DNA from: Dehalococcoidia bacterium
GTDB lineage: Bacteria; Chloroflexota; Dehalococcoidia; Lucifugimonadales; SHYT01
Assembly (NCBI GenBank): GCA_009693045.1
Contig: SHXZ01000003.1
Coordinates: 128,958 to 192,957, forward strand
Length of the DNA stretch: 64,000 bases
Reading direction: 5' to 3'
In this document: positions 2,462 to 56,500 of the stretch, piece after piece
How the letters are laid out: each line of letters starts with the position of its first letter
How positions within the stretch are numbered: the first letter of the stretch is position 1
Notes under the pieces: generated by a model
The model's database searches: none
What the model was told of the DNA's origin: nothing
Seen by the model: the letters and a program-made list of their open reading frames with translations, nothing else
Position numbers and translations under genes: made by a program

Positions 2462-3490
2462 ATGGTCACGTTAAGTGTGCTAGACCAGTCGCCCATCCGC
2501 GAGGGCGGGACGCCGCAGGACGCCATCCGCGAGACACTGGCGCTGGCGGAGGCCGCGGACCGGCTCGGCTACGCGCGGTACTGGCTCGCGGAGCACCACA
2601 GCGCCGAGGGCCTCGCGTCGGCGTCGCCGGAGGTACTTATCCCCGCCGTGGCGTCACGGACGAAGCACATCCGCGTCGGCTCCGGCGGCGTGATGCTGAT
2701 GCACTACAGCCCGCTGAAGGTCGCGGAGCAGTTCCGGATGCTGGAGTCGCTGTTCCCCGGCCGGATTGACCTGGGGCTGGGTCGCGCGCCCGGCAGCGAC
2801 CAGCGGACGGTGTTGGCTCTGGCCCCCAGCGCGAGGCCCACGCCCGTGAGCGCGTACCCCCACCTGGTGGCGGACCTCGTGCGGTTCCTCGCGGACGAGC
2901 TGCCGGACGAGCACCCGTTCCACGGCATCCACGCCAATCCTGCGGGGCATGGCATGCCGGAGCTGTGGCTGCTCGGCTCTGGCATTGAGAGTGCGCAGTT
3001 CGCGGCGGATATCGGGTGCGGGTTCTCGTTCGCGCATTTCATCAGCGCCGAGGGCGGGCCGCAGGTCGTGCAGATGTACCGCGACATGTTCAAGCCGTCG
3101 TCCGCGCTGCCGAAGCCGCGAGTGAACGTGGGCGTCTCGGTGGTGTGCGCGGAGACGCAGGAGCAGGCGGAGGGGCTCGCGTGGAGTCTGCGGATGTGGC
3201 GGCTCCAGCGGTTCACCGGCGCGCGGCGCGGCGGCGTCCCCTCGGTGGAGAAGGCGCTGGCGTACCCGTACACGCCGGCGCAGAAGCAGTTCCTCGCCAC
3301 CATGGAAGGCCGCTTCATCTACGGCGACCCGAAGCGGGTGAAGGAGCGGCTGCTGGCGCTGGGCGAGGAGTACGGCACGGACGACTTCGTCATCGTTACG
3401 ATCTGCCACCGGTTTGAGGACCGTCTGCGGTCGTACGAACTGCTGGCGGAGGCTTTTGACTTAGACCACCGCGACGGACCGAACGACTAG
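2462..3490 (+). CDS. LLM-class flavin-dependent oxidoreductase (luciferase-like)
   Basis: LSVLDQSPI, RYWLAEHH, IRVGSGGVML, PGRIDLGLGRAPG. Confidence 0.92.
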   Translation: MVTLSVLDQSPIREGGTPQDAIRETLALAEAADRLGYARYWLAEHHSAEGLASASPEVLIPAVASRTKHIRVGSGGVMLMHYSPLKVAEQFRMLESLFPGRIDLGLGRAPGSDQRTVLALAPSARPTPVSAYPHLVADLVRFLADELPDEHPFHGIHANPAGHGMPELWLLGSGIESAQFAADIGCGFSFAHFISAEGGPQVVQMYRDMFKPSSALPKPRVNVGVSVVCAETQEQAEGLAWSLRMWRLQRFTGARRGGVPSVEKALAYPYTPAQKQFLATMEGRFIYGDPKRVKERLLALGEEYGTDDFVIVTICHRFEDRLRSYELLAEAFDLDHRDGPND

Positions 3491-3802
3491 CGGACCGGTC
3501 ATCATCGCCCGCGTTTCCGCCTCACCTCCCCTCGGCTACGCTCGGGGCAGGCTCTATCCCTCTCCACTTGACATTTCCCCCTCGCTCCGCTGGGGGCCGA
3601 GGGCGGGCGTGGAAGAGGGGGAGCACCGAATTTCGCTTTCGCGAGACCGACAGTTTGACTCAACGTTGGCATACCACCACGAACCAGGCGTGTACTTTCC
3701 TCCTCAACCTCGGCCCCACGGTTGGACGTAGAATGAGGGGGCCGGCAGGGACACCTGCGGTAGGGACTTTCGCGAGTCGTTGAGAAGCAGGGACGGTACT
3801 CC

Positions 3803-4474
3803 ATGCAGCAAGTTCTGGTCGTTGAGGACGAATCCGCTATCGGCGACGTCCTGAAGCTCGGACTGGAGCAGGAAGGGTTTTCGGTGGAGCTTGCCTTTGA
3901 CGGGCGCGCTGGGCTGGAGTCGTTTGGCCGCCGCAGGCCGGACCTTGTGCTGCTGGACATCTTGCTGCCGAAGATGGACGGCTGGGAGGTGTGCAGGCGC
4001 ATTAGGGCTACGAGCAACGTGCCGATCATCATCCTTTCGGCGAAGGACGCGATCCAGGACCGGGTCAAGGGGCTTGACCTTGGCAGCGACGACTACCTTG
4101 TCAAGCCCTTTAGCCTGGACGAGTTGCTGGCCAGGGTACGCGCGGTGCTGCGACGACGGAGCGAGTCGTCAAACGCCAAGGCGTTGACGTTCCTTGACCT
4201 GGAGGTGAGGACGGAAAACCGCGAGGCCGTGCGGGCGAACTTCCCCATCGTGTTGACCACGAAAGAGTTTGACCTGCTGTGCTTTTTTCTACGGCATCCA
4301 CGGCAGGTGCTGTCCAAGGAGCGGATTCTAGAAGGGGTCTGGGGCCGTGATTACGTTGGCGAGAGCAATGTCATTGAGGTGTATGTGGGGCACTTGCGTC
4401 GCAAACTGGGGGAGCCGCCGCTGATCCAGACGATCCGCAACGCTGGATACGCATTGAGGGCGGACCCATGGTGA
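3803..4474 (+). CDS. OmpR/PhoB-family response regulator
   Basis: VLVVEDE, LLDILLP, GSDDYLVKPF, winged-helix VIEVYVGHLRRKL. Confidence 0.95.
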   Translation: MQQVLVVEDESAIGDVLKLGLEQEGFSVELAFDGRAGLESFGRRRPDLVLLDILLPKMDGWEVCRRIRATSNVPIIILSAKDAIQDRVKGLDLGSDDYLVKPFSLDELLARVRAVLRRRSESSNAKALTFLDLEVRTENREAVRANFPIVLTTKEFDLLCFFLRHPRQVLSKERILEGVWGRDYVGESNVIEVYVGHLRRKLGEPPLIQTIRNAGYALRADPW

Positions 4475-5904
4475 CGTGGTCCGGGACGCTTCGCTGGCGC
4501 ATTACGTTTTTGTTTGCCATTTTCCTTGCGGCGTTACTCTCAGGCTTGGGATATGTGATTTACGAAGGCGTGGAAGGGTTCCTGCTGGATGCCTCGGCCT
4601 CGCGGCTCCGTGCGGCGATTGACGCCGAGGTGAAGATCACGAATGCGTCGGCGAATCTGGATACCTCGCAGAGCGCCGGCCCCGCGCTGCACTTCTCCCG
4701 GGATCCGCTAGGCGAGACTTCGGTACTTTTCCTGGACGCTGCGGGGCAACCTTATCGCGCGGTTTCCGCGTCCAACGGCGTCAGAGCGGTGAAGTACTCG
4801 GACATCCCTTACGACGCTATCATCTCCGAACCGGAGGAGGCTGTCTTCACGGTTCGGGACCAGCAGACGCGGGAGCGGACGATGGTGCTCCTCGTGGCCC
4901 TACAGACCCCTGACGGGTCTGTACAGGGGCTCGTCCAAGGCGCACGCTCTTTGAGGCGAGCAGACCAACTCCTGGTGCAGGTGCGCTGGCTCCTGGTGAT
5001 TGCCATGGGGACGTCACTGCTCGCGGCGATCTCGGTGGTCCTCATCATCGGCGCGGTCAGCCTGCGGCCTCTGGAGAAGATGGCGACGACGGCCCAGTCC
5101 ATCGCCACCGGAGACCTAAAGCAACGGATGGCGTTCGCCCAACGGGGCGATGAGATTGGCAAGCTCGCGACCGCGTTCAACACCATGCTGGACAGCATTC
5201 AGGGGGCGTTTTCCAACGAACAGCAGCTACGGGGAAATCTCAAGGCGTTCCTCGCCGACGTCTCTCATGAACTGCGCACCCCGCTGACGGCTGTCCGGGG
5301 CTATACGGACGTGTTGCTTCGTGGCGGGCTCAAGAACCAGGCTCTGACCGAGCGCGCCCTGCGCTCCATGCAGGGGGAGCTGGAGCGGATGACGAGGCTG
5401 ATCAGCGACCTGCTTTCGCTGAGCCGGATTGAGACAGGAATCGGCCTGCGTTCAGAGCTGGTTGACCTGCGGGCGGTGTGCCGGGAGGCTTGTGCCGAGG
5501 TCCGCGTGATCGCCGGTGGCCGCGAAGTGGCGCTGAATACGAACGGACCCGTGGCGGCGCCGGTGGACCGAGACCGCTTGAAACAGGTCGTGTTGAACCT
5601 GCTTCAGAACGCCATCCAGCACACGCCCGAACAGGGCCACATTTCCGTCAGCGTGTACGCGGGGGACGGGTCCGGGGTGATTCAGGTCGCCGACGACGGC
5701 GATGGCATGGCTGCGGATGATCTGCCCAACGTTTTCGAACGCTTCTACCGGGGGGCCGGCTCCGCCGACAAGCCTGGAGGCGTAGGGCTTGGCCTCGCTA
5801 TTACGAAGGCGCTTGTGGATGCGCACCACGGCAAAATCGCCGTTGAGAGCGCGCCAAACCAAGGAACGACGTTTACCGTGACCCTCCCGCTGGCCACGAC
5901 CTAA
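4468..5904 (+). CDS. HAMP-domain sensor histidine kinase
   Basis: two TM helices, HAMP (DEIGKLATAFNTML), H-box SHELRTPL, N/G1/F/G2 boxes. Confidence 0.95.
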   Translation: MVTWSGTLRWRITFLFAIFLAALLSGLGYVIYEGVEGFLLDASASRLRAAIDAEVKITNASANLDTSQSAGPALHFSRDPLGETSVLFLDAAGQPYRAVSASNGVRAVKYSDIPYDAIISEPEEAVFTVRDQQTRERTMVLLVALQTPDGSVQGLVQGARSLRRADQLLVQVRWLLVIAMGTSLLAAISVVLIIGAVSLRPLEKMATTAQSIATGDLKQRMAFAQRGDEIGKLATAFNTMLDSIQGAFSNEQQLRGNLKAFLADVSHELRTPLTAVRGYTDVLLRGGLKNQALTERALRSMQGELERMTRLISDLLSLSRIETGIGLRSELVDLRAVCREACAEVRVIAGGREVALNTNGPVAAPVDRDRLKQVVLNLLQNAIQHTPEQGHISVSVYAGDGSGVIQVADDGDGMAADDLPNVFERFYRGAGSADKPGGVGLGLAITKALVDAHHGKIAVESAPNQGTTFTVTLPLATT

Positions 5905-5906
5905 CA

Positions 5907-5960: not shown

Positions 5961-6048
5961 CACGCCATAGGGGTAGGTAGCTTATCCCTGGCCGCGTTGC
6001 GGCTAGGCACACGATGCGAATCCTGTCGCCTTACCCCTGGAAGGTCGT

Positions 6049-7122
6049 ATGCGGGATGTAGACCCCTTAGACGTCAAGGCCTGTTTAAACGTTGCCCGTG
6101 AGAGATCTGGGTTTGAACGACTGGCAGGCCTGAAACTCGCGAAGCTCCATGCGCTCATAGACTGGATTCGTCCAACGGGCTCCAGGGCGGAAGAGGTGAT
6201 CGGCAGGGCGATGGTGGCGATGGTGCAGGCACATGTTGCAAGCGCGGCTTCCTCTTATTCACCGTTGCATTCTGAGGCGAGAGCGGGAGCTTTCGCGGAG
6301 GACGGGTACTCTTTGCGGACGAGTCCGGCGGCTCCGCGGTCTGGACGGAGGGATGCCGCGCTCCTCGGCCCGCAGACACAGGAGTTGGCGTGTGAGGCAG
6401 CTGTGATGATGAACGCTGGAGCTGGCATCTTGGTGCCTGAGGCTGACCTCCGAGAACGGGTCGCGGCTTTGCTTCGCGCGGAGGAGGACCAGTTTGACGC
6501 CGACTTGGCCGCCGGCTCGGCAGTTCAGGTCCGCACGGCGCGGTTTGTCCCCACGGACGACTATGCAGGCATTATGCAACTGGACCCGGTGGTCTACGGA
6601 AGCAGCCCTGCCAAGCCGCTGTGGAAGTCCGAGGAGCTTGAGACGCTATCCAGGGTATTCCCCGAGGGAGCATTGATTGCAGCCAACCGGCGCGGGACGG
6701 TGCTAGGGTACTGCATTGTGCTCCCCGTGAAGCCCAGCTTCGTTAGCGATTACCTGAGCGGGAAGCGCCGCGCCGACGCTGACTGGAACCTTCTTCAGGA
6801 CCCACTTACCGCGCAGGAGGCCCGCGATGCTCCGGCGGTTTGCGCTCTGCTGAGCGACATCTGCGCGTTCCCCCTGCCGACGCTCCGTTTGCACGCGGCT
6901 CTTGGTTTTGCGCGGGAGCTCAAGCGCAAGCTTCGCGAGTATCCGAACTGCGACCGGGCGTGCGCGATTGTGGTCAGCGAAGAAGGCAAGCGGCTTGACC
7001 GGATGTTCCGGTCGTTCATGAAGCTTGAGCAGGAGCGCGACAACGGCGAGTGGGGCCTGTTTAGGGTCTGGAAGCTCCACACAAAGGACGCTGACTGCTT
7101 GACTCAACCTGCTGAGGCTTAA
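6049..7122 (+). CDS. hypothetical protein with a probable C-terminal GNAT-like domain
   Basis: DYAGIMQLDPVVY...FPEGALIAANRRGTVLGYCIVLPV...CAIVVSEEGKRL pattern resembles a GNAT fold; N-terminus unrecognised. Confidence 0.6.
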   Translation: MRDVDPLDVKACLNVARERSGFERLAGLKLAKLHALIDWIRPTGSRAEEVIGRAMVAMVQAHVASAASSYSPLHSEARAGAFAEDGYSLRTSPAAPRSGRRDAALLGPQTQELACEAAVMMNAGAGILVPEADLRERVAALLRAEEDQFDADLAAGSAVQVRTARFVPTDDYAGIMQLDPVVYGSSPAKPLWKSEELETLSRVFPEGALIAANRRGTVLGYCIVLPVKPSFVSDYLSGKRRADADWNLLQDPLTAQEARDAPAVCALLSDICAFPLPTLRLHAALGFARELKRKLREYPNCDRACAIVVSEEGKRLDRMFRSFMKLEQERDNGEWGLFRVWKLHTKDADCLTQPAEA

Positions 7123-7142
7123 GCGAACGTGGAGATGCGGAA

Positions 7143-7481
7143 TTGAACGGACTGCACCTGCTGGTTCAAGGGTACCTTGAGCATCGCCTGGAGCCCGCCG
7201 AGGTCACGAGGGTGTTGCGGGACCTTCCGCAGCTTATTGGGATGACCATCGTGAGCGGGCCGCACGTGTTTGACCATTCGGGCATCGTTGTCATTGCGGA
7301 GTCTCACATCAGCATCCACTGGCTCGGGGACGCTTGCTGGGTTGACGTGTTCTCGTGCAAGGAGTTTGACCCCACCGTCGCTACACGCTTTATCCAGGAA
7401 CGGCTCCATTTCCGCCACGTCGTGGAGACGCGGGTGATTACGAGGGGGCCGGTTGACGTACGAACCCCTGCTCTGGTGTAG
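7143..7481 (+). CDS. S-adenosylmethionine decarboxylase family proenzyme (pyruvoyl-dependent)
   Basis: GLHLL start, SGIVVIAESHISIHW self-cleavage motif, VDVFSC, terminal ITRG; TTG start after GGAG. Confidence 0.85.
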   Translation: MNGLHLLVQGYLEHRLEPAEVTRVLRDLPQLIGMTIVSGPHVFDHSGIVVIAESHISIHWLGDACWVDVFSCKEFDPTVATRFIQERLHFRHVVETRVITRGPVDVRTPALV

Positions 7482-7611
7482 ACTTCACGGGAGGAACTAC
7501 GATGAAGAAAGAACGCTGAGAGCAAGGGGTCTAAGAAGAAGTAACTGGCTAAGTCCCAGGCTTCACGACTGGGCTGGGCATGGCGCGTTCGATGGCATAG
7601 GCGACGTTGGC

Positions 7612-7770
7612 CCATGGAGGGCCGCTTCATCTATCGGTGACCCGAAGCGCGTGAAGGAACGGCTGCTGGCCCTGGGCGAGGAGTACGCCACGGATGACTT
7701 CGTGATCGTGACGGTTTGCCACCGGTTTAAGGACCGTCTGCGGTCGTACAAGCTGCTGGCGGAGGCGTTT
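7612..7770 (+). repeat. displaced, diverged copy of the LLM gene 3' end (3300..3457)
   Basis: aligns codon by codon (GDPKRVKERLLALGEEY.TDDFVIVT.CHRF.DRLRSY.LLAEAF); mostly synonymous changes and one 1-nt insertion. Confidence 0.9.
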
Positions 7771-7874
7771 TGGTTGAATGGCGAAGCCCCTTCGGCAACT
7801 CCTGGAGCTTCGCTCACCCCTAGCGCGTCGGCGGTGCACAGCCAAAGTGACGGGCTAGGGAACACTCCACTCCA

Positions 7875-8195
7875 ATGAGATGGCTCTTGCTGGGCATGGC
7901 GATCGCGCTGGAGGTGTGCGGAGAGATCTCCGTGAAGCTGTCCCAAGGATTCAGTCGAGCCACCCCTTCGGTGCTGGTCTTTGTGTTCTACGGCCTCTCG
8001 TTTGTCTCGTTCATCTTTGCCGTGAAGTGGGTTCCTCTGAGCGTAGCCTATGCTATTTGGTCCGGCGTGGGCATCGTCAGCATTACCATCATCGGCGCCC
8101 TACTATTCCGCGAAGGCTTGGGAGCGGCGAAGGTCCTCTTCATCGCGCTGATCATCGCGGGCGTCGTGGGACTGCAGTTGACCGGGCGTCGGTGA
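7875..8195 (+). CDS. SMR-family small multidrug efflux protein
   Basis: WLLLGMAIALEV, KLSQGF, PLSVAYAIWSGVG; 4 TM. Confidence 0.9.
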   Translation: MRWLLLGMAIALEVCGEISVKLSQGFSRATPSVLVFVFYGLSFVSFIFAVKWVPLSVAYAIWSGVGIVSITIIGALLFREGLGAAKVLFIALIIAGVVGLQLTGRR

Positions 8196-8688
8196 CGCGT
8201 GCCGCCCTGGCGGGCTTCGCCGGCTCACTGCCGCCACCCATCCTGACGATAGTCCTCCACTCTTGCTCCGTCACCGGCTGCACGGAGAGGCGCCCGAGTC
8301 TAAAGAGCGTCATGTCCTTCAACGCCGGTACCCGTTTCAGCTCCTCCAGAGTCACGGGCCGCGTGAAGCGCTGGTCGGCGCGGATGTCCACCATGAACCA
8401 CGTAGGGTTGTCCGGCGTGCTCTTCGGGTCAGGGTGATCCGACTTGGGGTCCCAGGCGGTGTGGTCGGGGTAGCCTCCGCGCGCGACGACGGCGGTGCCC
8501 ACGATTGCCTGGTGGTTAGGGCTGCTGTGGTAGAACAGCACGCCGTCGCCTTGCTTGATCTGGTCGCGGAGGAAGTTGCGGGCCGCGAAGTTGCGCACGC
8601 CGTCCCACTCAGAGACGCCGTCGCGGACCAGGTCGTCATAGGAGTAGGCGCCAGGCTCGGACTTAAACAGCCAGTAGCGGCGGGGCAT
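8152..8688 (-). CDS. EVE domain protein
   Basis: YWLFKSEP, WDGVRNFAARN, GDGVLFYHS, RLSVQPV. Confidence 0.92.
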   Translation of the reverse strand: MPRRYWLFKSEPGAYSYDDLVRDGVSEWDGVRNFAARNFLRDQIKQGDGVLFYHSSPNHQAIVGTAVVARGGYPDHTAWDPKSDHPDPKSTPDNPTWFMVDIRADQRFTRPVTLEELKRVPALKDMTLFRLGRLSVQPVTEQEWRTIVRMGGGSEPAKPARAARVTDARSTAVPRRPR

Positions 8689-8781
8689 TGCGACCTCCTG
8701 AGATACGGTGACTTGGCGTCATGATAGCATCGCGCGAGCATGGTACACTCGCAGCCACGTGGCTGCTGAGGAGGCGATGCC

Positions 8782-9609
8782 GTGGCATCCAACAGCGACT
8801 TAGCGAAGGCCGCGAGGGCGCTCTCCCGCGCCGACCCTGTGTTGCGTGACGTCATCAAGAAGGTGGGGCCCATCACGCTCAGGCCGCCGGGCGAGCCGTT
8901 CCCGTCGCTGGTGCGTTCCATCTTTTACCAGCAGCTCGCGGGGCCTGCGGCAGCGGCCATCCTGAGGCGCTTCCTGGCGCTGTACGGCGACGGCGCCTTC
9001 CCCGCGCCGCAGCAGGTGCTGGAGACGTCCGACGAGCAGCTCCGTTCGGCGGGCCTGTCGCGCCAGAAGCTGGGCTACCTGAGGGACCTGTCAGCCAAAT
9101 TCGCGGACGGCACCCTCAGCAACGAGAAGCTCAGGTCGCTGCCCGACGACGAGCTTGAGAAGGCGCTCATGTCGGTGAAAGGCATCGGGCGGTGGACGGC
9201 GGACATGTTCCTGATGAACGTGCTGCACCGGCTGGACATTCTGGCGGTGGACGACCTGGGCCTGCGCAAGGGAGCGCAGCAGGCGTTTGGGTTGGAGACG
9301 ACGCCGACGCCTAAGGAGCTGTTGGCGCTGGGCGAGCGATGGCGCCCGTACCGGTCGCTGGCGGCGTTGTACCTGTGGCGAAGCCTGGATGGCCGCCCGC
9401 CAAGACCGCCTGAGAAGCAGGCAGTCGGCACGCCGGAGGGTAACCACTCGCGCCAAGGTTTCTGCAACGAGCGATGCATCGAAGGCCCGGCAGGACCGGG
9501 CTCCAGCGGGCAAGGCCAAGACGCCCAAGAGAGCGGCGACGGGCAAGGGACAACCAGCGCCACGAAGCGGGCCACGTTGACACCGCGGAGGCTGCCATCG
9601 CCGCAGTGA
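8782..9609 (+). CDS. DNA-3-methyladenine glycosylase II (AlkA family)
   Basis: SIFYQQL, GLSRQK, HhH KGIGRWTADMFL, DLGLRK, WRPYRS; low-complexity tail. Confidence 0.9.
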   Translation: MASNSDLAKAARALSRADPVLRDVIKKVGPITLRPPGEPFPSLVRSIFYQQLAGPAAAAILRRFLALYGDGAFPAPQQVLETSDEQLRSAGLSRQKLGYLRDLSAKFADGTLSNEKLRSLPDDELEKALMSVKGIGRWTADMFLMNVLHRLDILAVDDLGLRKGAQQAFGLETTPTPKELLALGERWRPYRSLAALYLWRSLDGRPPRPPEKQAVGTPEGNHSRQGFCNERCIEGPAGPGSSGQGQDAQESGDGQGTTSATKRATLTPRRLPSPQ

Positions 9610-10266: not shown

Positions 10267-10295
10267 GTAGGGGCGGGTTTGAAACCCGCCCCTAC
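10267..10295. repeat. GTAG-type REP palindrome
   Basis: GTAGGGGCGGGTTTGAAACCCGCCCCTAC; near-identical copy at 51555. Confidence 0.85.
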
Positions 10296-17604: not shown

Positions 17605-17633
17605 AGCGGGCACGTGGGTGCAGCATCACAAAC

Positions 17634-17741
17634 GTAGGGGCGCATGGCCGTGCGCCCCTACGGAACGGCGAGATCTGATTGCCGCTGGAAGAACCTACGC
17701 CTGGCGAAATGCGTTGGGGACGAGACATGCTTCGCCCCTAC
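17634..17741. repeat. pair of GTAG-type REP palindromes
   Basis: GTAGGGGCGCATGGCCGTGCGCCCCTAC (17634) and a degenerate copy at 17713. Confidence 0.8.
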
Positions 17742-19530: not shown

Positions 19531-19532
19531 CG

Positions 19533-21471: not shown

Positions 21472-21499
21472 GACGCCCTCGACTTTCTGGCGCGCACGT

Positions 21500-40040: not shown

Positions 40041-40481
40041 ATGGTTGGGCGGCTCTTTAGCAGGTCACGAGGCGGCGAGGCCGAGGCGCTGGCGCGCATT
40101 GAGCGGGCGCGCCGGGAGAAAGCGACCGAACTGGGCGGGCTCACCGCCCTGCCCGATGCCATCGGCCAGCTCGCCCAGCTTCGGGCGCTGCGCGTCTCCA
40201 ACAACAAGCTCGCCGCCCTGCCCGACGCCCTCGGCCAGCTCACCCAGCTTCGGGATCTGTACGTCTCCAACAACAATCTCGCCAAGCTGCCCGAGTCTCT
40301 CAAGAAGCTCACGTCGTTGAGGGAACTGTACCTCCACGGGAACGACCGGCTGGGCATCCCGCGCGAAGTGCTTGGACCTACTTCGCTCGGACCTCCTTCG
40401 TTTGACGTCATTGGGGAGAACGCCACACCCGCCAGTCCCGCCGCCATCCTGGACTACTACTTCCGCGTCCGCGAACTGTAA
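40041..40481 (+). pseudogene. leucine-rich repeat protein, truncated LRR-Roc-COR type
   Basis: 23-aa LRRs (LPDAIGQLAQLRALRVSNNKL); AILDYYFR followed after the stop by in-frame DRRPLN. Confidence 0.75.
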
Positions 40482-40738
40482 GACCGCCGCCCCCTCAACG
40501 CATACCGTCCCTCTCACCCTTCTGCGCCATCGCAAAATCTGCGGACACGCCTTCCCCGTCCCGCCGCCGTCTGCTAGAATAGCTTCCTTGTTGGGCGCAC
40601 CCGCTTCCGCCACCATCTTCCCCTTCCGCTGAAGGAAGGGGCCAGGGGTTGGGCCTGTCCTGAGTGGCGCGAAGGACCCGCCGAGAGGAGTGGTACCGCC
40701 ACCGCATCCTGAAGTTAGACCACCTGGAGGGAGCAAAA

Positions 40739-42022
40739 GTGCCAGCCTACGCGATCATCGGGGGCCAGTGGGGCGACGAGGGCAAGGGGAAAGTCATAGA
40801 CTACCTCTCCCGCAATGCCCACGTCGTCGCACGCTACGCCGGCGGCAACAACGCCGGCCACACCGTGCTGAACGAGCAGGGCGAGTTCCGCCTCCACCTC
40901 GTGCCCTCCGGCGTCTTCTGGCCCCAGGTCACGCCCGTCATCGGCAACGGCGTCGTGGTGGATCCCAACGTGCTGCTGGAAGAGATGGACATGCTCGTCG
41001 GACGCGGCGTGGACGTATCCCGCCTCCAGGTCAGCGAGCGCGCCCACGTCATTATGCCGTACCACGTCAAGCTGGACCTGCTGGAGGAGCAGGCGCGCGG
41101 AGGCGGCGCCCTGGGCACCACCGGACGCGGCGTCGGCCCCGCCTACGTGGACAAGGCCGCCCGCCTCGGCATCCGCGTCGGCGACCTTCTGGACGACGAG
41201 AACCTCCCTGGCGTCCTTGGACGCGCGCTTGCCCAGAAGAACCGCCTCCTCACCCGCATGTACGACGCCGAGCCCTTCGCACTCGCGGACCTCGTCGCCA
41301 CCTGCCGCGCCTGGACCGAGCGGCTACGGCCGTACGTCGCGTCCGTGGACGTCACCATCGCCCTCGCGCTGGCCGACGGCAAGAACGTCCTGCTGGAAGG
41401 CGCGCAGGGTGCCCTCCTGGACGTGGACCACGGCACCTACCCGTTCGTCACGTCGTCCAACCCCACCGTCGGCGGCGCCATCGTCGGCCTTGGCCTCAAC
41501 CCGATGGCGCTGAAAGGCGTCACCGGTATCTACAAGGCGTACACGACGCGCGTGGGCGCAGGCCCCTTCCCCACCGAGCTGAACGACGCCATCGGCGATC
41601 AGATCCGCCAGCGCGCGTGGGAGTACGGCACGACCACGGGCCGCGCCCGCCGCTGCGGCTGGTTTGACGCCGTGGCCGCGCGGCATAGCGCCACCGTCAA
41701 CGGATTCACGTCGGCCATTGTGACGCGACTGGACGTGCTGGAGGGCATCACGCCGCTCAAGGTCTGCGTGGCGTACCAGGTGGACGGCCAGCGCACGACG
41801 GTCTTCCCCGGCGCGGACGCTCTGGCTCGCGCCGTGCCGGTGTACGAGGAGCTGTCCGGCTGGACAGAGCCCACCGCGGGCCTGACGCGCTGGGACGGCC
41901 TGCCGCGCAACGCGCAGCGCTACGTGACCCGCCTCGGCGAGCTCATCGGGGCACCCGTCGCCGTCATCTCCACGGGGCCGAACAGGCACGAGACGATTGA
42001 ACTGGCGAAGGTGATGGGGTAA
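40739..42022 (+). CDS. purA: adenylosuccinate synthase
   Basis: GQWGDEGKGK, GGNNAGHT, EGAQG, EYGTTTGRARRCGWFD. Confidence 0.98.
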   Translation: MPAYAIIGGQWGDEGKGKVIDYLSRNAHVVARYAGGNNAGHTVLNEQGEFRLHLVPSGVFWPQVTPVIGNGVVVDPNVLLEEMDMLVGRGVDVSRLQVSERAHVIMPYHVKLDLLEEQARGGGALGTTGRGVGPAYVDKAARLGIRVGDLLDDENLPGVLGRALAQKNRLLTRMYDAEPFALADLVATCRAWTERLRPYVASVDVTIALALADGKNVLLEGAQGALLDVDHGTYPFVTSSNPTVGGAIVGLGLNPMALKGVTGIYKAYTTRVGAGPFPTELNDAIGDQIRQRAWEYGTTTGRARRCGWFDAVAARHSATVNGFTSAIVTRLDVLEGITPLKVCVAYQVDGQRTTVFPGADALARAVPVYEELSGWTEPTAGLTRWDGLPRNAQRYVTRLGELIGAPVAVISTGPNRHETIELAKVMG

Positions 42023-42152
42023 CACCGCTCATCCTGAGCTTGTCGAAGGGTGAACAGCCCAGCCGGCGTCATTCTGAGCACACCGAAGAATCCGTTCCTG
42101 ACGTTCCGCAGCCATGACCCTGCGCTATGATGCACCCAAAGCGAGAGTGTTC

Positions 42153-42389
42153 ATGGACGCGAAACTGACGTTCCGGTACGACCGCATCGGTGACATCCTC
42201 TACATTGACAAGTGCCCGCCGTACCCCGAACAAGAGTCCGAGGAGATCGGGGACGAAGTGGTTGCGCGTCTCAATCCAAAGACCGGTGAGATTGAGACGC
42301 TGGAGATCCTCTTCTTCAACTCGCGCTTACGGCAAGGCGAAACGATTGACCTGCCCGTGGATGCCGACCTGCGCCTGGTGGCAAGTTGA
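42153..42389 (+). CDS. DUF2283-like small protein
   Basis: FRYDRIGDILYI...SEEIGDEVVARLN..GEIETLEIL. Confidence 0.75.
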   Translation: MDAKLTFRYDRIGDILYIDKCPPYPEQESEEIGDEVVARLNPKTGEIETLEILFFNSRLRQGETIDLPVDADLRLVAS

Positions 42390-42391
42390 CG

Positions 42392-42466
42392 CGCTGCCCC
42401 GTCGCCGTCATCTCCACCGGCCCGCACCGGCACGAGACCATTGAGCTGCACAAGGTGGGGGGGTAG
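42392..42466 (+). repeat. displaced, diverged copy of the purA 3' end
   Basis: encodes CPVAVISTGPHRHETIELHKVGG* versus purA APVAVISTGPNRHETIELAKVMG*. Confidence 0.9.
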
Positions 42467-42478
42467 GATAAAGCGGCT

Positions 42479-42685
42479 ATGAGCACTACCAAGCGAAAAC
42501 AAGTTCGGATTATCCTGGAAAACGGCAAGCCAGCGGCCGGCATTCTGGATATTGCTGCTTATCGCAAGCTGCTAGAACGCCCCGAGGACGCCCAGGACCT
42601 GAAAATGCTGGAGCGGATGCGCAAGAAGCCGCTCAAGTTCCGCAAGTTAGACGAGTTCCTTGCGGAGAACCGCCCGCGTGTATGA
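42479..42685 (+). CDS. putative antitoxin (RelB/Phd-like)
   Basis: ENGKPAAGILDIAAYRKLLE..ED..DL; overlaps the RelE-like ORF. Confidence 0.7.
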   Translation: MSTTKRKQVRIILENGKPAAGILDIAAYRKLLERPEDAQDLKMLERMRKKPLKFRKLDEFLAENRPRV

Positions 42686-42875
42686 AGTCCTCATCGAGCG
42701 TCACGCTGAACGCGATCAGAAACGGCTCTCCCTCGAAAACTACGGGCATGTTGTCCCGGCCATCCAGGCGCTTGCCCTCAACCCCAGGCCAACCAACTCC
42801 CGCAAGCTCTCCGGCTCCCCCGCCGACTTTCGCCCCTGCACGAGACTTACGCTATTGCTTGGGGTCGATTGCTAA
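42678..42875 (+). pseudogene. RelE/ParE toxin, C-terminally truncated
   Basis: YEVLIERHAERD.KRL...I.ALA.NPRP...RKLSG; the expected RIRVGDYR half is absent. Confidence 0.75.
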
Positions 42876-43424
42876 GCTTTCCAAGAACTTTTGCAAGCGT
42901 TGAACCTCGGCCGTTTTCAAATCCGGAGGCAGATTGAGGTATGCTAGCTGGCTTTCGCAAAGTGGGAATGAGTAATGGATTAAACCAACGTTCTCATTAT
43001 TGAGACGCTTGCCGATGCGGCCGCTTTGGACACGGCCAGGCGCTTCATTTCTTTCTCCCACCGAAGCCTTCTCGCGGGGAGTTTGTTCTCGTGCAGCAGG
43101 TTTCCAAGCCGCGGGGTTGTCTAAGTACGCCAGGTAGGAAGGCAAAGCCGTGCGAAAACGCCGGGTATAAGCGTGCAAGCTCTCTGGCTTATACTTAGTC
43201 TTCCTTAGATTCTGGAAACGTCGAATGACGTCCTCCACGTCCAAGCTACGCAGATCAGCTTGCTCCCAGTCGTCAAGCACGCCAAGCACTTCAGAACAAG
43301 CGGCCCGCAGCGTCGCAGCTGTGTTCTGGTTGAGCAAGCCCTTCTGCGATGCCCACCCCCAGAAATCCACTATGCCCCGGCCATTTGGCCCAAGCTCGGC
43401 CTTGGATTTGACAGACGTCACCAT
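42852..43424 (-). CDS. hypothetical helical protein, low GC
   Basis: WASQKGLLNQNTAATLRAA, DVIRRFQNL, YKPESL..Y..R; C-terminal LPPDLKTAEVQRL. Confidence 0.75.
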   Translation of the reverse strand: MVTSVKSKAELGPNGRGIVDFWGWASQKGLLNQNTAATLRAACSEVLGVLDDWEQADLRSLDVEDVIRRFQNLRKTKYKPESLHAYTRRFRTALPSYLAYLDNPAAWKPAAREQTPREKASVGERNEAPGRVQSGRIGKRLNNENVGLIHYSFPLCESQLAYLNLPPDLKTAEVQRLQKFLESLAIDPKQ

Positions 43425-43586
43425 TCCAGTTCTCCATCCACAAATTTTCCTAACCGTCCTAACTATTCATTTGCTCCGTGTCAAGTATCTGAATCTGGAT
43501 TGACAGTTTTATCAAATAGAACGTACGAACTGAGTACAATCCGGAAGGATTCGGAGTTGCCAGTTAGTGCGGCTGCTCTACCATCC

Positions 43587-43624
43587 GGGGAGCCCGAGGG
43601 GCTCGCAGTCCCTCGGCGTACCCC
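43587..43624. repeat. two-copy palindromic repeat
   Basis: GGGAGCCCGAGGGGCT.GCAGTCCCTCGGCGTACCC; inverted copy at about 52059..52095. Confidence 0.75.
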
Positions 43625-43714
43625 GTTCCCCACCAACCAGAGAAGGCGCCCCGGTCCCCCGGAGCGCCTTCTCTCCTCAATCCCTAGAATCTGGGTAATC
43701 TGCGGATTGGTCCC

Positions 43715-44620
43715 CTACGCCGCCGCGCCCACCGGCAAGTCCACCTTGTACTGCGCCAGCAGGCCGTCAAGCTGCTGCGCCTCCTTCTCGCTCGGAGGCA
43801 CCAGCGGCAGCCGAGGTATCCCAACGCGGAACCCCGCCTTGTTCACCAGGTACTTCACCGGAATGGGGTTGGACACGATGAACAGCCCCTTGAACATGGC
43901 GTGCAGCCGGCGGTGCTCCGCGGCGGCCTTCTCTACCTGCCCGTCCAGCACGTACCCGATCATCTGCTTGATCTGCGCGCCCACCAGGTGCGACGCCACG
44001 CTCACGATGCCGTAGCCGCCCACCGCGACGATGTAGAACGTCTCGTTGTCGTTGCCGCTCCACACGTGGAAGCCGGGCCGCGCGCCATCCACCACGCGTG
44101 TCACCTGGTCCATGTCGCCGCCCGCTTCCTTGACGCCGCAGATGTTCTCAATGGCGCTCAGGCGGATGATGGTCTCGTGGGTCATGTTCAGGCTGGTGCG
44201 GCTGGGCACGTTGTAGAGCAGCACCGGCACGTGCACCGCGCCAGCGATGGCCTTGAAGTGCTGGTACAGCCCCTCTTGCGGCGGCTTGTTGTAGTACGGG
44301 ACGACGGCCATCACCGCATCCACGCCCTGCTTCTCCGCCTCGCGGGAAAACTCCACGCTCTCCCGCGTGTCGTAGTTGCCGGTGCCCGCGACGACGTTGC
44401 CGCGGTTCCCCAGCGCCGACTTCACCTCGGCGAAGAGGTGCAGCTTCTCGTCGTGCGACAGTGTCGGCGACTCGCCCGTCGTCCCCGCGACGACGACGCC
44501 GTCGCTCCCCGAGTCCACCAGCGCCTTCGCGAGACGCCCCGCCTGCTTGAAGTCCACCTTCCCCGAGTCGTCCATCGGGGTCACCATCGCGGTCAGGACG
44601 CGTCCCAGCTCCTTCGCCAT
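43715..44620 (-). CDS. dapA: 4-hydroxy-tetrahydrodipicolinate synthase
   Basis: GTTGES, PYYNKP, YNVPSRT, GVKEA, NPIPVK. Confidence 0.97.
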   Translation of the reverse strand: MAKELGRVLTAMVTPMDDSGKVDFKQAGRLAKALVDSGSDGVVVAGTTGESPTLSHDEKLHLFAEVKSALGNRGNVVAGTGNYDTRESVEFSREAEKQGVDAVMAVVPYYNKPPQEGLYQHFKAIAGAVHVPVLLYNVPSRTSLNMTHETIIRLSAIENICGVKEAGGDMDQVTRVVDGARPGFHVWSGNDNETFYIVAVGGYGIVSVASHLVGAQIKQMIGYVLDGQVEKAAAEHRRLHAMFKGLFIVSNPIPVKYLVNKAGFRVGIPRLPLVPPSEKEAQQLDGLLAQYKVDLPVGAAA

Positions 44621-44637: not shown

Positions 44638-45021
44638 TTACGTTGGGTCTATTCTAACTCTTTGGGCGGGGCCGTCCAGTGTCACGCGCCACCTGTTGAG
44701 GACATTTCTGCCGAGGAGCGCAAAGGGGTTGCGCCACCCGATGACCCTCGTGACCCAGGTCTCACCGCTGCTCAGGGCCATCTGAACGATAAACACGGGC
44801 GACGGACTTGACACCTGTCCAACGCCGCGCACCTCTACCAGGTCCACCTGTTGAAGGCCAAACCGCTCAACGAGGCCTTGGGGTATCGCCGAAAGCGCGG
44901 AACCTGTGTCCAATAGCGCGACAACACGCTCCGCCGCTGAGGAACCCACCGCCTGGACGACCACTTCTACCGTGGGCGCCGGTGGTACAAACCCAGCGTC
45001 ATAGGCGGTTTCTAGCGTCAC
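44638..45021 (-). CDS. retropepsin-like aspartyl protease
   Basis: ALLDTGS catalytic motif, ALLGRNVL. Confidence 0.85.
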   Translation of the reverse strand: MTLETAYDAGFVPPAPTVEVVVQAVGSSAAERVVALLDTGSALSAIPQGLVERFGLQQVDLVEVRGVGQVSSPSPVFIVQMALSSGETWVTRVIGWRNPFALLGRNVLNRWRVTLDGPAQRVRIDPT

Positions 45022-46355
45022 TGGGCTGGTATAACCGTGATCAAGCTGGGCATCTCTATCGTTCGGTCTTCGCGAGTCACATGCGGCATGAGGGTGTCTC
45101 TGTGCCCATACTTTGCAAAGACGCGAGGCGCCAGTTTCCCAAAGTCCGGGTCGCTGTCCACGACCCTGCCGCCAATGATGGCAACGTAGACGCCCCCGTA
45201 CTTGAGGAGGAGTTCGCTCTTGTGGGCCTTGTACCAGCGGAAGTCCTCTTCAAATGTGCTGTTCGCTTGCGCGTGCGCCTTGGCAGGTTGACGGCCAGCC
45301 TCGGTATTCTTTTGAGAGGAACGCGCCTGCGAGCGGCCCGCCGGCAGCAGCTCCCGGCGCTGCATCTCCTCGGCGATCTGGATGGCGTTCAGCGCCGCGC
45401 CCTTCCGCAGGTTGTCCGAGACGACCCAGAACGCCAGCCCGTTGGGGTGCGAGGCGTCCTGCCGGATGCGCCCCACCCACGTCTCGTCGGTGCCGGCGGC
45501 CTGGAGCGGCATCGGGTACTCCGACTGCTCCGGTCGGTCGAGCACCTTCACGCCGGGCATCCGCGAGAGCAGCTCCCGCGCCTCGGCGGCGGTCATCGGG
45601 CGGTCAAACTCCACGTGGACGGCCTCGCTGTGGCAGACCTGCACCGGCACGCGCACGCACGTTGAGGAGATGGGCAGGTCCGGCAGGTGCAGGATCTTCC
45701 GCGTCTCCTGCACCATCTTCCACTCTTCCCTGGTGTACCCGTTGTCTAGGAAGCTGTCCACCTGGGGGAGCAGGTTGAACGCGATGGGGTGCGGGTACGC
45801 CTTGGGCGGATGCTCCCGCCCGTCAAGCGCCGCGCGGCTCTGCTCGGTCAGCTCGTCCATGGCGGCCCGCCCGGTGCCGGAGACGGCCTGGTACGTGGCG
45901 ACGGTCACGCGCTTAATCTCCGCCCCCTGCCGCAAGGCGTGGAGGGTCATCGCAAGCGGCGTCGTGGTGCAGTTGGGGATGGAGACGATGCCCTTGTGGC
46001 GCTCCAGGTCGTCGTCGTTGACCTCCGGCACCACCAGCGGCACGTCCGTCTCCATGCGGAACACCGAGCTGTCGTCAATGGCGACGGCGCCCGCCTGCGC
46101 CGCCTGCGGGCACGCGACCTTACTGATGCTGCCGTCCGCGGAGACGAAGGCAATGTCCGCGCCCTTGAAGGTGTCCGGGCCGAGCGCCTCCACGGTGTAC
46201 TCTTTGCCCCGCACGCGAATGCGCTTGCCCACAGACCTGGGCGACGCGACCAGCTTGAGGTCCATGACCGGGAACTTTCGCTGCTCCAGCACCTTCAAGA
46301 AGACGGTGCCGACAGCCCCGGTGGCCCCGACGACGACGACGTTCAAGCCTGCCAC
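45018..46355 (-). CDS. asd: aspartate-semialdehyde dehydrogenase fused to a DUF5678-like domain
   Basis: VGATGAVG, PNCTT, YQAVSGTG, CVRVPV, DNLRKGAALNA; no stop until after KYGGVYVAIIGGRVVDSDPD. Confidence 0.9.
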   Translation of the reverse strand: MAGLNVVVVGATGAVGTVFLKVLEQRKFPVMDLKLVASPRSVGKRIRVRGKEYTVEALGPDTFKGADIAFVSADGSISKVACPQAAQAGAVAIDDSSVFRMETDVPLVVPEVNDDDLERHKGIVSIPNCTTTPLAMTLHALRQGAEIKRVTVATYQAVSGTGRAAMDELTEQSRAALDGREHPPKAYPHPIAFNLLPQVDSFLDNGYTREEWKMVQETRKILHLPDLPISSTCVRVPVQVCHSEAVHVEFDRPMTAAEARELLSRMPGVKVLDRPEQSEYPMPLQAAGTDETWVGRIRQDASHPNGLAFWVVSDNLRKGAALNAIQIAEEMQRRELLPAGRSQARSSQKNTEAGRQPAKAHAQANSTFEEDFRWYKAHKSELLLKYGGVYVAIIGGRVVDSDPDFGKLAPRVFAKYGHRDTLMPHVTREDRTIEMPSLITVIPAQ

Positions 46356-46528
46356 GTTCGCCTCTCCCTCACAGTCATTTCTACCGATGGTACCACGGAA
46401 CCGGCGGAGGTTCCAAGCCATCCTCGGGTTTGTCATACTCGAGCAAACCAAAGCCGTGATACCGTGCCCCGTACGCAACAACTCCTAACGATGCTATGCT
46501 ACTCGTATTATGGGTTTTAGGAGCTCTT

Positions 46529-46972: not shown

Positions 46973-47629
46973 CTACAGCAGTGCCGCCGCCTCGCGGTGG
47001 CCACGCTCCTCGGCCATGTCGCGCGGCGTCTTGCCATCGTTGCTCTTGATGTCTTTTCGCGCGCCCTTGCCCAGCAGCAACTTCAGCATCGCCGCGTTCC
47101 CGTGCACGGCTGCCTTGTGGAGGGGCGTGTAGCCTCCCGCGCTCTGCACGTTCGGGTCCGCGCCGTGCGCCAGAAGCACCTCCGCGGCACCCGGCTCCCC
47201 AGCCGCGATGGCGGCGTCCAGCGCGGTGTTCTGATTGCGGCTGTCCATGACCAAGTCTACCTCCGCGCCGCGTTCCAGCAGAAACTCAACGGCTTCCTTG
47301 TTGCCGAAGAACGCCGCCAGGCCCAGCGGCGTGAATCCCTCCCGCGACGTGGCGTTCATCATGACCGCTCGCGCGCGCTTGGTGGAGAGCAGCTTTTTGA
47401 GCCGCTTCACGTCGCCCACCGCCGACGCGTCAAAGACGTCCATTTCCGCGCCCGCAGCCAGCAGCGCCTCAAGCACGGCGCTCTGGCCGCGATAGACGGC
47501 GTTGAGCACCGCCGTCGCGCCCCGCTCGTCCGTGGCATTAGCGAGCATCGGGTCTGCAACGAGCATGGCCTTCACGGCGTCCACGCGCCCGGCCCGCACT
47601 GCCGACATGAACTCCATCGCCATCGTCAT
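46973..47629 (-). CDS. ankyrin repeat protein
   Basis: GFTPLGLAAFFG, GYTPLHKAA, GKTPRDMA. Confidence 0.92.
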   Translation of the reverse strand: MTMAMEFMSAVRAGRVDAVKAMLVADPMLANATDERGATAVLNAVYRGQSAVLEALLAAGAEMDVFDASAVGDVKRLKKLLSTKRARAVMMNATSREGFTPLGLAAFFGNKEAVEFLLERGAEVDLVMDSRNQNTALDAAIAAGEPGAAEVLLAHGADPNVQSAGGYTPLHKAAVHGNAAMLKLLLGKGARKDIKSNDGKTPRDMAEERGHREAAALL

Positions 47630-48635: not shown

Positions 48636-49281
48636 ATAGGGGCGACTCAACGGGTCGCCCCTACGATACTACCGTTGTGGGTTGGAGAAAAGTCCCTCCT
48701 GCGCAGCGGCAGAGATGGTATTTAGTGGCCGCCGTCGTTGATTGCTTTGTTTCTTGCGGTGCAGCCGGCTTTTGCTAGGGTTGTTTTTTCGCCGAGCAAA
48801 CGCCTGGAAGCTGGTCGTGACGGGCTTTGTGCAGTTGCCATAGGGTCCCCAGTTTCGCCAATTCAATGCTATGCACCTCAAGGGCGCAGCGCCCAAACCG
48901 TGGCGTTGAGGAGACGGGAAGCGACGCTGCGTGTTCATAGCATTAGGTTACGACTGGGCGGGCTTTTCCGGAAGGGGGCGATGGCAGCGGGGTGGAGTGT
49001 TTGGCGCCGGGTGGCGTCGGCGCAAGGGGTAGGGGTGCACGGCCGTGCACCCCTACGGGCAACGAATGTGTATCGAACTTCGGCGGATTCGACCGGCATA
49101 CCGGGATGGCATACCGGCATCGAGAGCGCGGGCTTGCTGGCGCAGCGCGGCATGCTGACGTGTTCCCGGCGTATGGCGTAGGGGCGAGGCATGCCTCGCC
49201 CCTACGGTCTTGGGCAAGGTGGTTAGTGTGTCCAGACGACCTCCGCCAAAGCGTATGGGCGACCCGGCGGGTCGCCCATAC
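48636..49281. repeat. cluster of four GTAG-type REP palindromes
   Basis: copies at 48636, 49029, 49178 and 49253, each with compensatory stem variants. Confidence 0.85.
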
Positions 49282-49306
49282 ATCAGCGCAGTGGTGGCGG
49301 TATGCG

Positions 49307-51520: not shown

Positions 51521-51554
51521 GGGCTACACCTCCTCAGGGGCCACTAGACGAGAA

Positions 51555-51583
51555 GTAGGGGCGGGTTTCAAACCCGCCCCTAC
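51555..51583. repeat. GTAG-type REP overlapping the rpsO stop codon
   Basis: GTAGGGGCGGGTTTCAAACCCGCCCCTAC; its terminal GTAG on the minus strand contains the rpsO TAG. Confidence 0.85.
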
Positions 51584-53143: not shown

Positions 53144-53217
53144 GGTTACGGGCGAGAGGCCCTTTCTTCCAAGAAAGGGCCTCTCGCGCTCTCTCCAAAG
53201 AACTTTTGCACATAGGT

Positions 53218-54828: not shown

Positions 54829-54888
54829 GCATCAGCCTCACTGGTTTCAGCTATAAGGGCGTTGGTCGTATTTGCGTGCTCTACCCCA

Positions 54889-55076
54889 GAGCCTGCGAAG
54901 GAACTGTCTTGCGATCCCTTGGCCTTCCCGTCGACCTTCGGTGTCCGGTGCCCACAAGCCAACCTTGGGGACGCCCACCGCCTCACCACCCACCTCTCCC
55001 TCAATCCCTCCCCGACGCGGGGAGGGATCCCCTCATCTGAGCGGCGACGCAAGTGTTGGCATTTGTTCACAGCCTC
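54889..55076. mobile_element. MITE copy 2
   Basis: aligns along its length with 2219..2399; ends GAGCCTGCGAA / TTCACAGCCTC; flanks CCA/TCA. Confidence 0.8.
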
Positions 55077-55119
55077 TCACCTAGCCTCCCTTTACCAGGG
55101 GAGCAATTGGTGTGCCGCG

Positions 55120-55150
55120 CTACGTCAGGTCAAACACCACCTTGACCGAC
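55120..55150 (-). repeat. displaced copy of the 3' end of the Zn-dehydrogenase gene
   Basis: 21 identical bp plus synonymous variants encoding SVKVVFDLT* (gene ends ESVKVVFDLTG*). Confidence 0.8.
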
Positions 55151-55276
55151 GCTGTACTGTCAGGTTGAGTCATACCGTATCGTTCGCAAAGTTCTTACTT
55201 CACCCCTAACCCCTCTCCGCAATGCGGAGAGGGGGAAAGCCTCACCTCCACGATCTGCAACTGAAGGCCGAGGTGA

Positions 55277-56500
55277 TTATCCCGTCAGGTCAAACACCAC
55301 CTTCACGGACTCGTGCTTGCCCGCGTGCATGGCCGTTGCGAAGGCCTCGCGGTAACGGGAGAGCGGGAATTTGTGGCGCACGAGTTGCGCCAGCCTCTCG
55401 CCCCAGCCTTGCCTCGCGAGCATGTCCAGCGCCAGCTGGAAGGTGCTCATTTGCCCTTCCCCGTGCTGCTCCGCGCCGTACGCATAGGCGCCGAGGACCG
55501 CGAGCTCTTTGTACCAGAGCGGAGTGAGGTCCGCTCTCGGCTCGCCGGGCATGCCGACCATCACCACCGTGCCGCGCGCCCTCGTCCAGCGCAGCGCGTC
55601 TTCCCAGGCGCTCGCGGAGCCGATGCACACGAAGCTCGCGTCAACGCCGCCGAGCACGTTCGGCTTGCCCCAGGGCAGCTTGAGCAGCTTGGCGCCGGTC
55701 ATCTCGGCGAGGCGCTGGTAGAGGCCACCCGTGCCGAGGACGCGCTGAGCGCCCAACTCTTTCGCCAGCGCCTGCTGGTGCGGGTACTTGGCAACAGCCA
55801 CAATGGTACATTCCGGCGCGAAGGCGCGCAACGCGGCGATGGTGAGGAGGCCGATGGTGCCGCAGCCCAGCACGAGGACCCTACTTCTCGGGGCGAGTTT
55901 AGCGCGGAGCGCGGCGTGGACGGCGCAAGCGAGGGGCTCCACAAGCACCGCGGCTTCATTGGAAATGGCGTCGGGGACGGGGTAGAGCTGGGAGTGATGG
56001 GCCACCAGGCTCGGGCCCCAGCCGCCGCCGGTGTCGCGGCAGAAGCCGGTCTGGATGCCGGAGGAGATGTCGCCGTCCATGACCCGCTCGCAGGCCGCGT
56101 AGTAGCCGGATCGGCATGGCGCGCACGGCTCAGCGAATCCGCGCACGCGGCACCCGAGCGCGGGCTCCAGCACCACGCGCTGCCCGACCGCAAGGCCGGA
56201 GACTTGGCCGCCTACGTCCGCAATCTCCCCGACGAGCTCGTGGCCCGGAACAAAAGGAAAGGAGACGAGCTCTGAAAGGTAGGGTGTTCCCTCCGCGGTG
56301 ATCACGGCGACGTCCGACCCGCAGACGCCGCTCAAGAGGGGGCGCACGCGTACCCACTGCGCGGTCGGCAGCTTGGGTTCCGGCACGTCCTCAAGGTGGA
56401 TGGCCGACGCCACGCCAGTCACGATGCTGGGGTAGCGCTTGCCGACCAGCTTTGCAGCTATAAAGCGGGGGACACTCCGGCGATAGTGAAGGGCGAGCAT
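55277..56500 (-). CDS. zinc-binding dehydrogenase
   Basis: GVCGSD, GHELVG, C..C......C, EPLACAVH, GCGTIG. Confidence 0.9.
   Translation of the reverse strand: MLALHYRRSVPRFIAAKLVGKRYPSIVTGVASAIHLEDVPEPKLPTAQWVRVRPLLSGVCGSDVAVITAEGTPYLSELVSFPFVPGHELVGEIADVGGQVSGLAVGQRVVLEPALGCRVRGFAEPCAPCRSGYYAACERVMDGDISSGIQTGFCRDTGGGWGPSLVAHHSQLYPVPDAISNEAAVLVEPLACAVHAALRAKLAPRSRVLVLGCGTIGLLTIAALRAFAPECTIVAVAKYPHQQALAKELGAQRVLGTGGLYQRLAEMTGAKLLKLPWGKPNVLGGVDASFVCIGSASAWEDALRWTRARGTVVMVGMPGEPRADLTPLWYKELAVLGAYAYGAEQHGEGQMSTFQLALDMLARQGWGERLAQLVRHKFPLSRYREAFATAMHAGKHESVKVVFDLTG

Follow-up and report, generated by a model that had tools for sequence, protein, structure and literature searches.

Spare copies of gene ends in a Dehalococcoidia genome, probable scars of one-sided homologous integration

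Spare gene ends in the window

The stretch of 64,000 nucleotides (nt) analyzed here (the window; positions 128,958 to 192,957 of contig SHXZ01000003.1) belongs to a Dehalococcoidia genome assembled from a metagenome (GCA_009693045.1, hereafter G000; 1.85 Mb in 15 contigs, 82.8% complete), the genes of which we called with our own hexamer model. Three genes of the window, coding for an LLM-class oxidoreductase (case a), PurA (case b), and a Zn-dependent dehydrogenase (case c), are each followed by other DNA, here called cargo, and then by a spare copy of their own 3′ end (Table 1). A preliminary description, made from the letters alone, had pointed out these repeats, and they exist at nearly the positions given there, the purA spare lying at 42398-42465 instead of 42392-42466.

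The copies of case (a) align over 159 columns, with 3, 1, and 11 mismatches at the first, second, and third codon positions; similarity ends 33 nt ahead of the live stop codon, and 4154 nt separate the two. One open reading frame (ORF) of this cargo, at 6049-7122, gave a GNAT-like Atlas lead alone (score 0.91, 128 shared features), and the transporter gene located after the spare may have been acquired too. In case (b), 68 nt are shared, with mismatches distributed 4/2/5 over the codon positions (five synonymous changes, one non-synonymous, and two multi-change codons), and the copies lie 376 nt apart. Case (c), on the minus strand, consists of 28 nt with two mismatches, both synonymous. The claim that the copies differ mostly at synonymous third positions is therefore true of (a) and (c), and only in part of (b). 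GTDB contains two genomes in the family of G000 and none in its genus; family-level relatives are ca. 70% identical. In one of them, G001, the gap from the dehydrogenase gene to the next gene is 22 nt versus 448 here. A fourth case, in which a gene head is duplicated, is found at the beginning of the window, and its copies differ at 15/42 four-fold versus 5/145 zero-fold degenerate sites. Pfam and NCBIfam searches detected no integrase, transposase, or reverse transcriptase family in the cargo ORFs of the window, as had already been noted for the three tail cases.

Table 1. Paired gene ends, their host genes, and cargo in the window
Feature	Position	Strand	Basis
MFS transporter between the fourth-case copies	125..1342	-	PF07690
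Fourth case: 224-nt, 89% copy of the 5′ 40% of the metallophosphoesterase gene ending at position 64	1883..2106	+	
Live LLM-class oxidoreductase gene (MsnO8 family), host of case (a)	2462..3490	+	PF00296; TIGR03558 396 bits, over cut-off
Duplicated live 3′ segment, case (a)	3300..3457	+	Alignment of copies
Cargo: OmpR-type response regulator	3803..4474	+	PF00072, PF00486
Cargo: HAMP sensor histidine kinase	4468..5904	+	PF00672, PF00512, PF02518
Cargo ORF, unassigned in Pfam and NCBIfam, with weak GNAT-like lead; start likely near 6433	6049..7122	+	
Cargo: S-adenosylmethionine decarboxylase-like ORF	7143..7481	+	PF02675; TIGR03330 below cut-off
Spare LLM tail, 89.9% identical, frameshifted by 1-nt insertion	7612..7770	+	Also in relative of run X4
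SMR-family transporter directly past spare	7875..8195	+	PF00893
purA, host of case (b)	40664..42022	+	PF00709
Live purA 3′ segment	41954..42021	+	Alignment of copies
Cargo: DUF2283 ORF, end 8 nt before spare	42114..42389	+	PF10049
Spare purA tail, 83.8% identical, reaching stop codon	42398..42465	+	
Phd/RelB-like antitoxin ORF past spare	42479..42685	+	PF02604 E 0.0015, below cut-off
Spare dehydrogenase tail; agrees with G001 at both differing sites	55123..55150	-	
132-nt spacer with hairpin repeat, no called ORF	55151..55282	.	
Zn-dependent dehydrogenase, host of case (c)	55277..56500	-	PF08240, PF00107; start from own gene caller
Live dehydrogenase 3′ segment	55283..55310	-	Alignment of copies

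For case (a), the locus was compared with contigs of two metagenomic runs, X1 (possibly the source sample) and X4 (groundwater, from another study). Contigs of X1 with zero differences cover 2374-3569 and 7316-9372, i.e., both junctions. In X4, a single contig of 2134 nt links the cargo (6007-7494) to the spare tail in a relative that is 5 to 7% diverged in the cargo. Since this relative has the same cargo and spare tail, the insertion must have been inherited and is older than the split between the two. The relative also has 416 extra bases at window 7494-7516, between cargo and spare, so the cargo has been altered since the insertion. Run X3 looked at first like a strain with an empty site (share 0.32); its contigs are short, have zero differences, and partly cover the cargo, so that the same organism at low coverage is the likelier explanation.

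In case (b), the purA-dapA interval measures 1.7 kb (window 42022-43715) and contains, besides the DUF2283 gene and the spare tail, a decayed antitoxin-toxin pair, the remnant that follows the Phd/RelB-like ORF being presumably RelE-like from its translation. In 14 loci of the order, dapA lies no more than 1.5 kb away from purA, and this interval is likely an insertion hotspot. No spare purA tail appeared in the 26 loci of the order or in 72 metagenome loci, where two candidates proved to be plain tandem repeats. A search for promoters and terminators at the purA locus gave nothing that exceeds shuffled sequences. A short ORF just 5′ of purA (40041-40481, plus strand) codes for leucine-rich repeats and contains a tandem unit of 69 nt.

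Spare gene ends across the genome

For each of 1164 genes of G000, three segments of 150 nt (from the start, the middle, and the end) were compared with 12 kb on each side, and copies inside genes and multi-copy repeats were removed. Orphan tail copies were found downstream of 17 of the 1164 genes and upstream of none, head copies upstream of six and downstream of three, and copies of the middle part in two and one cases, respectively downstream and upstream. On the opposite strand, the same six classes gave 4, 2, 0, 1, 0, and 0. A few members are weak: three of the 17 tail cases score under 40 bits, and one of the six head cases is a paralog cluster. The preliminary description had foreseen a target-flexible process, and the hosts are indeed many unrelated genes, which from their translations we take to include nadC, prmA, selB, ogt, pheT, nuoH, and CoA transferases. 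Spares range from 28 nt to ca. 390 nt (one of them covers 40% of its gene), and the copies are 72 to 93% identical. In the tail cases, similarity stops 0 to 46 nt from the stop codon, and the flanks beyond are unrelated. Many cargos measure 59 to 500 nt. Outside the window they were read by eye from translations, with recombinases sought through genome-wide family searches; they are mutually unrelated, and the DNA between copies is not itself duplicated. No common junction motif could be seen by eye across the scars, and no cargo end continues in another copy at the joint.

We ran the same pipeline on 20-kb pieces of other genomes, using 400 kb from each of seven relatives of the same order (G030 was left out) and loci from other organisms. 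The scar is general, and it is enriched in G000 about 3- to 5-fold over the sets sampled: 13/1154 genes in G000 versus 4/1898 in the seven relatives and 6/1483 in the loci of other organisms. Fisher P values are 0.002 and 0.036, respectively, and 0.011 against the relatives when the three window cases are removed, although kin are not independent and these values overstate the difference. This enrichment is among the points that support the preliminary interpretation. One of the four scars in the relatives is an IS3-type remnant; true scars, with an aldo-keto reductase gene or small ORFs as cargo, are among the rest. Two scars of order relatives are young, one in G019 (L283:7750-8500) with a 100-nt tail of a glycine decarboxylase gene, 99% identical, and one in G007 (L246:15900-17960) with an inositol monophosphatase gene tail, 93% identical, around an aldo-keto reductase. 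Among 77 LLM loci elsewhere, only one has a clear spare, in an Acidobacteriota genome (L180:10900-12350), where 92 nt are repeated after 1.25 kb holding an opposite-strand ORF of 327 amino acids.

Palindromic repeats of the GTAG type reach 38 per Mb in G000 versus 0 to 10 in the seven relatives, the highest density of the eight genomes. In the window they are located at 10267-10295, 51555-51583, 17633-17669, and 49028-49064. A dispersed hairpin repeat of ca. 200 nt (window 2187-2410 and 54887-55079; 82 to 89% identical) also occurs, and G000 has no fewer than five long copies of it.

Two alleles and two mirror outcomes

If a gene end is copied exactly and the spare then decays, divergence at four-fold degenerate sites is expected to be at most ca. 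twice that at zero-fold sites. We kept 19 of the 23 pairs (three under 40 bits and the paralog cluster were dropped) and found differences at 92/310 four-fold versus 113/1005 zero-fold sites, a ratio (d4/d0) of 3.1 with a bootstrap interval over loci of 2.3 to 4.9. Calculated from G<->C changes, the ratio is 5.8. The three window pairs give 5.6. Since 3.1 is above the expected 2, the copies are likely separate alleles whose divergence, under selection, preceded the event, which upholds the interpretation as two alleles in the preliminary description. Decay of the spares is visible in 13 indels and in stops in two pairs, and an outgroup agrees with the live copy at 25 of the 34 first- and second-position differences.

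Which copy was resident appears to vary. Family-level relatives (at ca. 70% identity) have no insert at the loci of the dehydrogenase and of the ogt-like gene, and the spare head of the nuoH-like gene retains the stop-start overlap with the upstream gene, as in G001. This overlap, together with the short gap of G001 and its site matches at the dehydrogenase, suggests from sequence comparison that the spare may be the old resident end at the dehydrogenase and nuoH-like loci. G001 also has the GIY-YIG gene that separates the two copies at the selB-like locus, and a foreign, AT-rich ORF is located past the spare; for this reason the spare here likely arrived with the donor DNA as a passenger, anchored in the next gene. 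These loci suggest that either copy can be the donor's, with two mirror outcomes. The earlier proposal that the donor supplied a gene tail and the cargo between the copies describes one of these outcomes, and as a general rule it is too simple.

Recombination and competence genes

Five tyrosine-recombinase matches were found in G000, among them xerD (window 20569-21669); none of the five is in a cargo, and two are decayed. Family searches of the genome (82.8% complete) found no Y1 transposase, resolvase, reverse transcriptase, or rve integrase. Candidate machineries were discarded on these and similar grounds: retro-transposition, with no reverse transcriptase found in G000; repeat-driven mobility, with no RAYT/Y1 transposase there and with cargos little enriched in repeat motifs; and Xer/dif modules, with one dif-like pattern match genome-wide, away from all cases.

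recA is intact. On the other hand, comEA and comEC have one in-frame stop each, and dprA is split between two frames (G000:C1:27100-30100 and G000:C9:19600-20700), so that all three competence genes are broken; among ordinary orthologs, by comparison, 15/550 have a stop or a change of frame. The comEC stop does not reflect TGA being read as Trp, as TGA ends 328 of the 1191 well-scoring genes and the stop of comEA is TAG. dprA is split in G001 and in a further genome, G002, as well, and comEC was not found in either. The family appears to be losing competence, and the lineage of G000 was likely competent until recently.

Origin of the scars

We think that the paired gene ends are probably scars left when DNA of related strains was integrated from one side only, with RecA providing the anchor. 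A fragment coming from a relative would pair with the resident gene through RecA and go through a single homologous crossover, while its other end would be joined without homology inside or beside the gene end, by homology-facilitated illegitimate recombination (HFIR). Alternatively, the fragment might re-circularize and enter by a single crossover, which would give the same product. Either way, a functional gene would be left next to a partial copy that is dead. Selection would presumably retain the events that keep one gene whole, which would account for the observed tails downstream and heads upstream. The DNA likely arrived by natural transformation before the competence genes broke. It should be noted that the intergenic DNA of G000 is rich in palindromic repeats and small genes of the toxin-antitoxin type; its fast turnover could often strip fragments of the second homology arm and in this way raise the scar rate. 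In favor of this origin are the polarity of the copies, their divergence as if between alleles and the subsequent decay of the spares, the variety of targets, window cargos free of recombinases, the intact recA, the broken competence genes, and the missing insert in relatives.

Several observations speak against this origin. HFIR is rare in the laboratory, as reported in PMC3240628. The synonymous excess is lost at kappa 2 to 4 (P 0.14 to 0.40) if multi-change codons are all counted as non-synonymous, and in the outgroup comparison of eight loci, third positions favor the spare in 14 instances, the live copy in 8, and neither of them in 10, which is ambiguous between the models. The pattern on the spare branch, 25 versus 8, resembles plain neutral decay. 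Neither GTDB nor the metagenome and genome scans provided a strain close enough for an empty site at the nucleotide level (best matches of at most 60% identity for the LLM protein in the genome scan and of at most 63% for the purA C-terminus in the metagenome scan). Part of the enrichment might come from slower scar loss, as suggested by the low coding density of G000 (0.74, the lowest of the sets, versus 0.79 to 0.89 in the others). An association with competence genes, raised in the preliminary description, did not appear across the seven relatives, with 3 scars in 810 genes of the comEC-bearing ones versus 1 in 1088 of those without a match (P 0.32, a weak test), one of the three being the IS3-type remnant; and no match to the pilus ATPase family PF00437 was found in G000.

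Duplication in place of a gene end or of the whole gene, with both copies perhaps working for a while before erosion and filling with repeats and small genes, is an unlikely origin, even if it has several points in its favor. It fits the range of spare lengths, up to 40% of a gene, and the outgroup-polarized changes agree with exact duplication; moreover, selection on both copies would also raise d4/d0 above 2, as in a live pair of tandem paralogs (3.7). However, erosion of whole duplicates predicts equal numbers of tails, heads, and middles downstream, where we counted 17, 3, and 2; no duplication was seen in the DNA that separates the copies; and the hosts include single-copy housekeeping genes such as purA.

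One-sided integration could also have been far more frequent than background HFIR, in the form of a target-flexible capture route in which any gene end serves as an entry site, based on competence machinery and small repeat-associated nucleases and ended when comEA, comEC, and dprA broke. We regard this as quite unlikely; if true, counting spare gene ends would amount to reading a fossil record of transformation in uncultured bacteria.

Elements that integrate into protein-coding genes leave the same architecture, and the scars might be remnants of such elements, targeted to gene 3′ ends, that restored the gene and later lost their integrase. The two decayed tyrosine-recombinase matches elsewhere in G000 would be in line with this. 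We find it distinctly improbable in view of at least 17 different targets and the mirror-image head cases, of cargos that are often just a few hundred nucleotides long and contain no recombinase match, and of the lack of a common junction motif by eye, the lone dif-like match being away from the cases.

A dedicated capture route of a kind not yet described, for example through breaks near gene ends made by small repeat-associated nucleases (GIY-YIG, DUF559) and repaired with foreign DNA, would account for the 3- to 5-fold enrichment and would sit well with the density of palindromes and with the GIY-YIG gene found as one cargo. Nevertheless, repeat motifs occur in 7/23 cargos versus 222/971 ordinary intergenic gaps, which is little enrichment; small GIY-YIG and DUF559 genes are common across the order, and the gene in question is shared with G001; and the same scars exist in other phyla. 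All this makes such a route very unlikely. Finally, chimeric co-assembly of two strains, which had been named as a possible refutation, is extremely improbable: G000 is a metagenome assembly and the comparison with sequencing runs covers contigs of case (a), but those contigs cross both junctions with zero differences, an independent relative has the same arrangement, the longest exact runs common to the copies are 20, 20, and 21 nt, and the spares bear frameshifts and stops.

Other features of the window

The asd ORF (45018-46481, minus strand) continues into a C-terminal DUF5678 match, which suggests that a small accessory gene may have been fused onto the end of a housekeeping gene. An ankyrin-repeat ORF adjoins dapB (46973-47629, minus strand).

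Comparison with known systems

The mechanism put forward in the preliminary description was largely right, but it is a known one. It had been presented as a candidate for an undescribed system, whereas two descriptions already exist that resemble it, and the scar is also present in relatives of G000 and in the Acidobacteriota genome. HFIR is described as RecA-dependent integration with homology at one end only, typically accompanied in laboratory crosses by deletions of ca. 1 kb and by microhomology of 3 to 10 bp; the same source reports that single crossover of re-circularized DNA in Escherichia coli gives partial duplications of 109 to 950 bp (PMC3240628). The tail scars are alike in having homology on one side only. 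The difference is that those were laboratory crosses, while here the process would have to be deduced from old scars.

Insertion with long target duplication is described as the placement of an insert of less than 20 kb between long imperfect direct repeats without other mobile genes; start or stop codons are often included in the repeats, the target being left intact, and most cases come from naturally competent species (Furuta, Abe and Kobayashi 2010, PMC2853133). Its repeats exceed 30 bp, as do those of case (a), 159 nt, and case (b), 68 nt, and the 28 nt of case (c) fall just short. The window cargos likewise have no integrase or transposase. The scars of G000 work like this type of insertion, but they are not the restriction-modification case: the cargo described in PMC2853133 is made of restriction-modification genes between repeats mostly >90% identical, whereas here it is mixed (a two-component pair, DUF2283, enzymes, and hairpin repeats) between copies 72 to 93% identical, and Pfam and NCBIfam searches found no restriction-modification genes in the window cargos.

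Integrase-borne elements of gene 3′ ends have an integrase and a fixed target, and neither is found here, with 17 tail and 6 head targets. At type VI secretion system (T6SS), Rhs, and contact-dependent inhibition (CDI) loci, an incoming module pushes the old 3′ end downstream, a displacement free of integrase that is ascribed to HFIR (Kirchberger et al. 2017, PMC5361080). Such displacement happens repeatedly at toxin-immunity loci and gives rise to arrays, while in G000 single scars are scattered over ordinary genes; the hosts in the window are no polymorphic toxins of the Rhs/T6SS kind but an LLM oxidoreductase, PurA, and a Zn dehydrogenase, with one spare each. Hotspots of horizontal gene transfer without integrases have been described beside recombining core genes and are commoner in transformable species (Oliveira et al. 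2017, PMC5635113); the double homologous recombination proposed there leaves no spare end, unlike here.

Our searches of the open-access literature brought up no published count of such scars over a whole genome. With ca. 1% of its genes scarred and its competence genes recently broken, G000 allows the weight of HFIR in nature to be tested. New genes can enter beside essential genes without any enzyme of a mobile element and leave a countable mark, and the scars of G000 are a fresh instance of this known class of mechanism, spread over the whole genome and modestly enriched.

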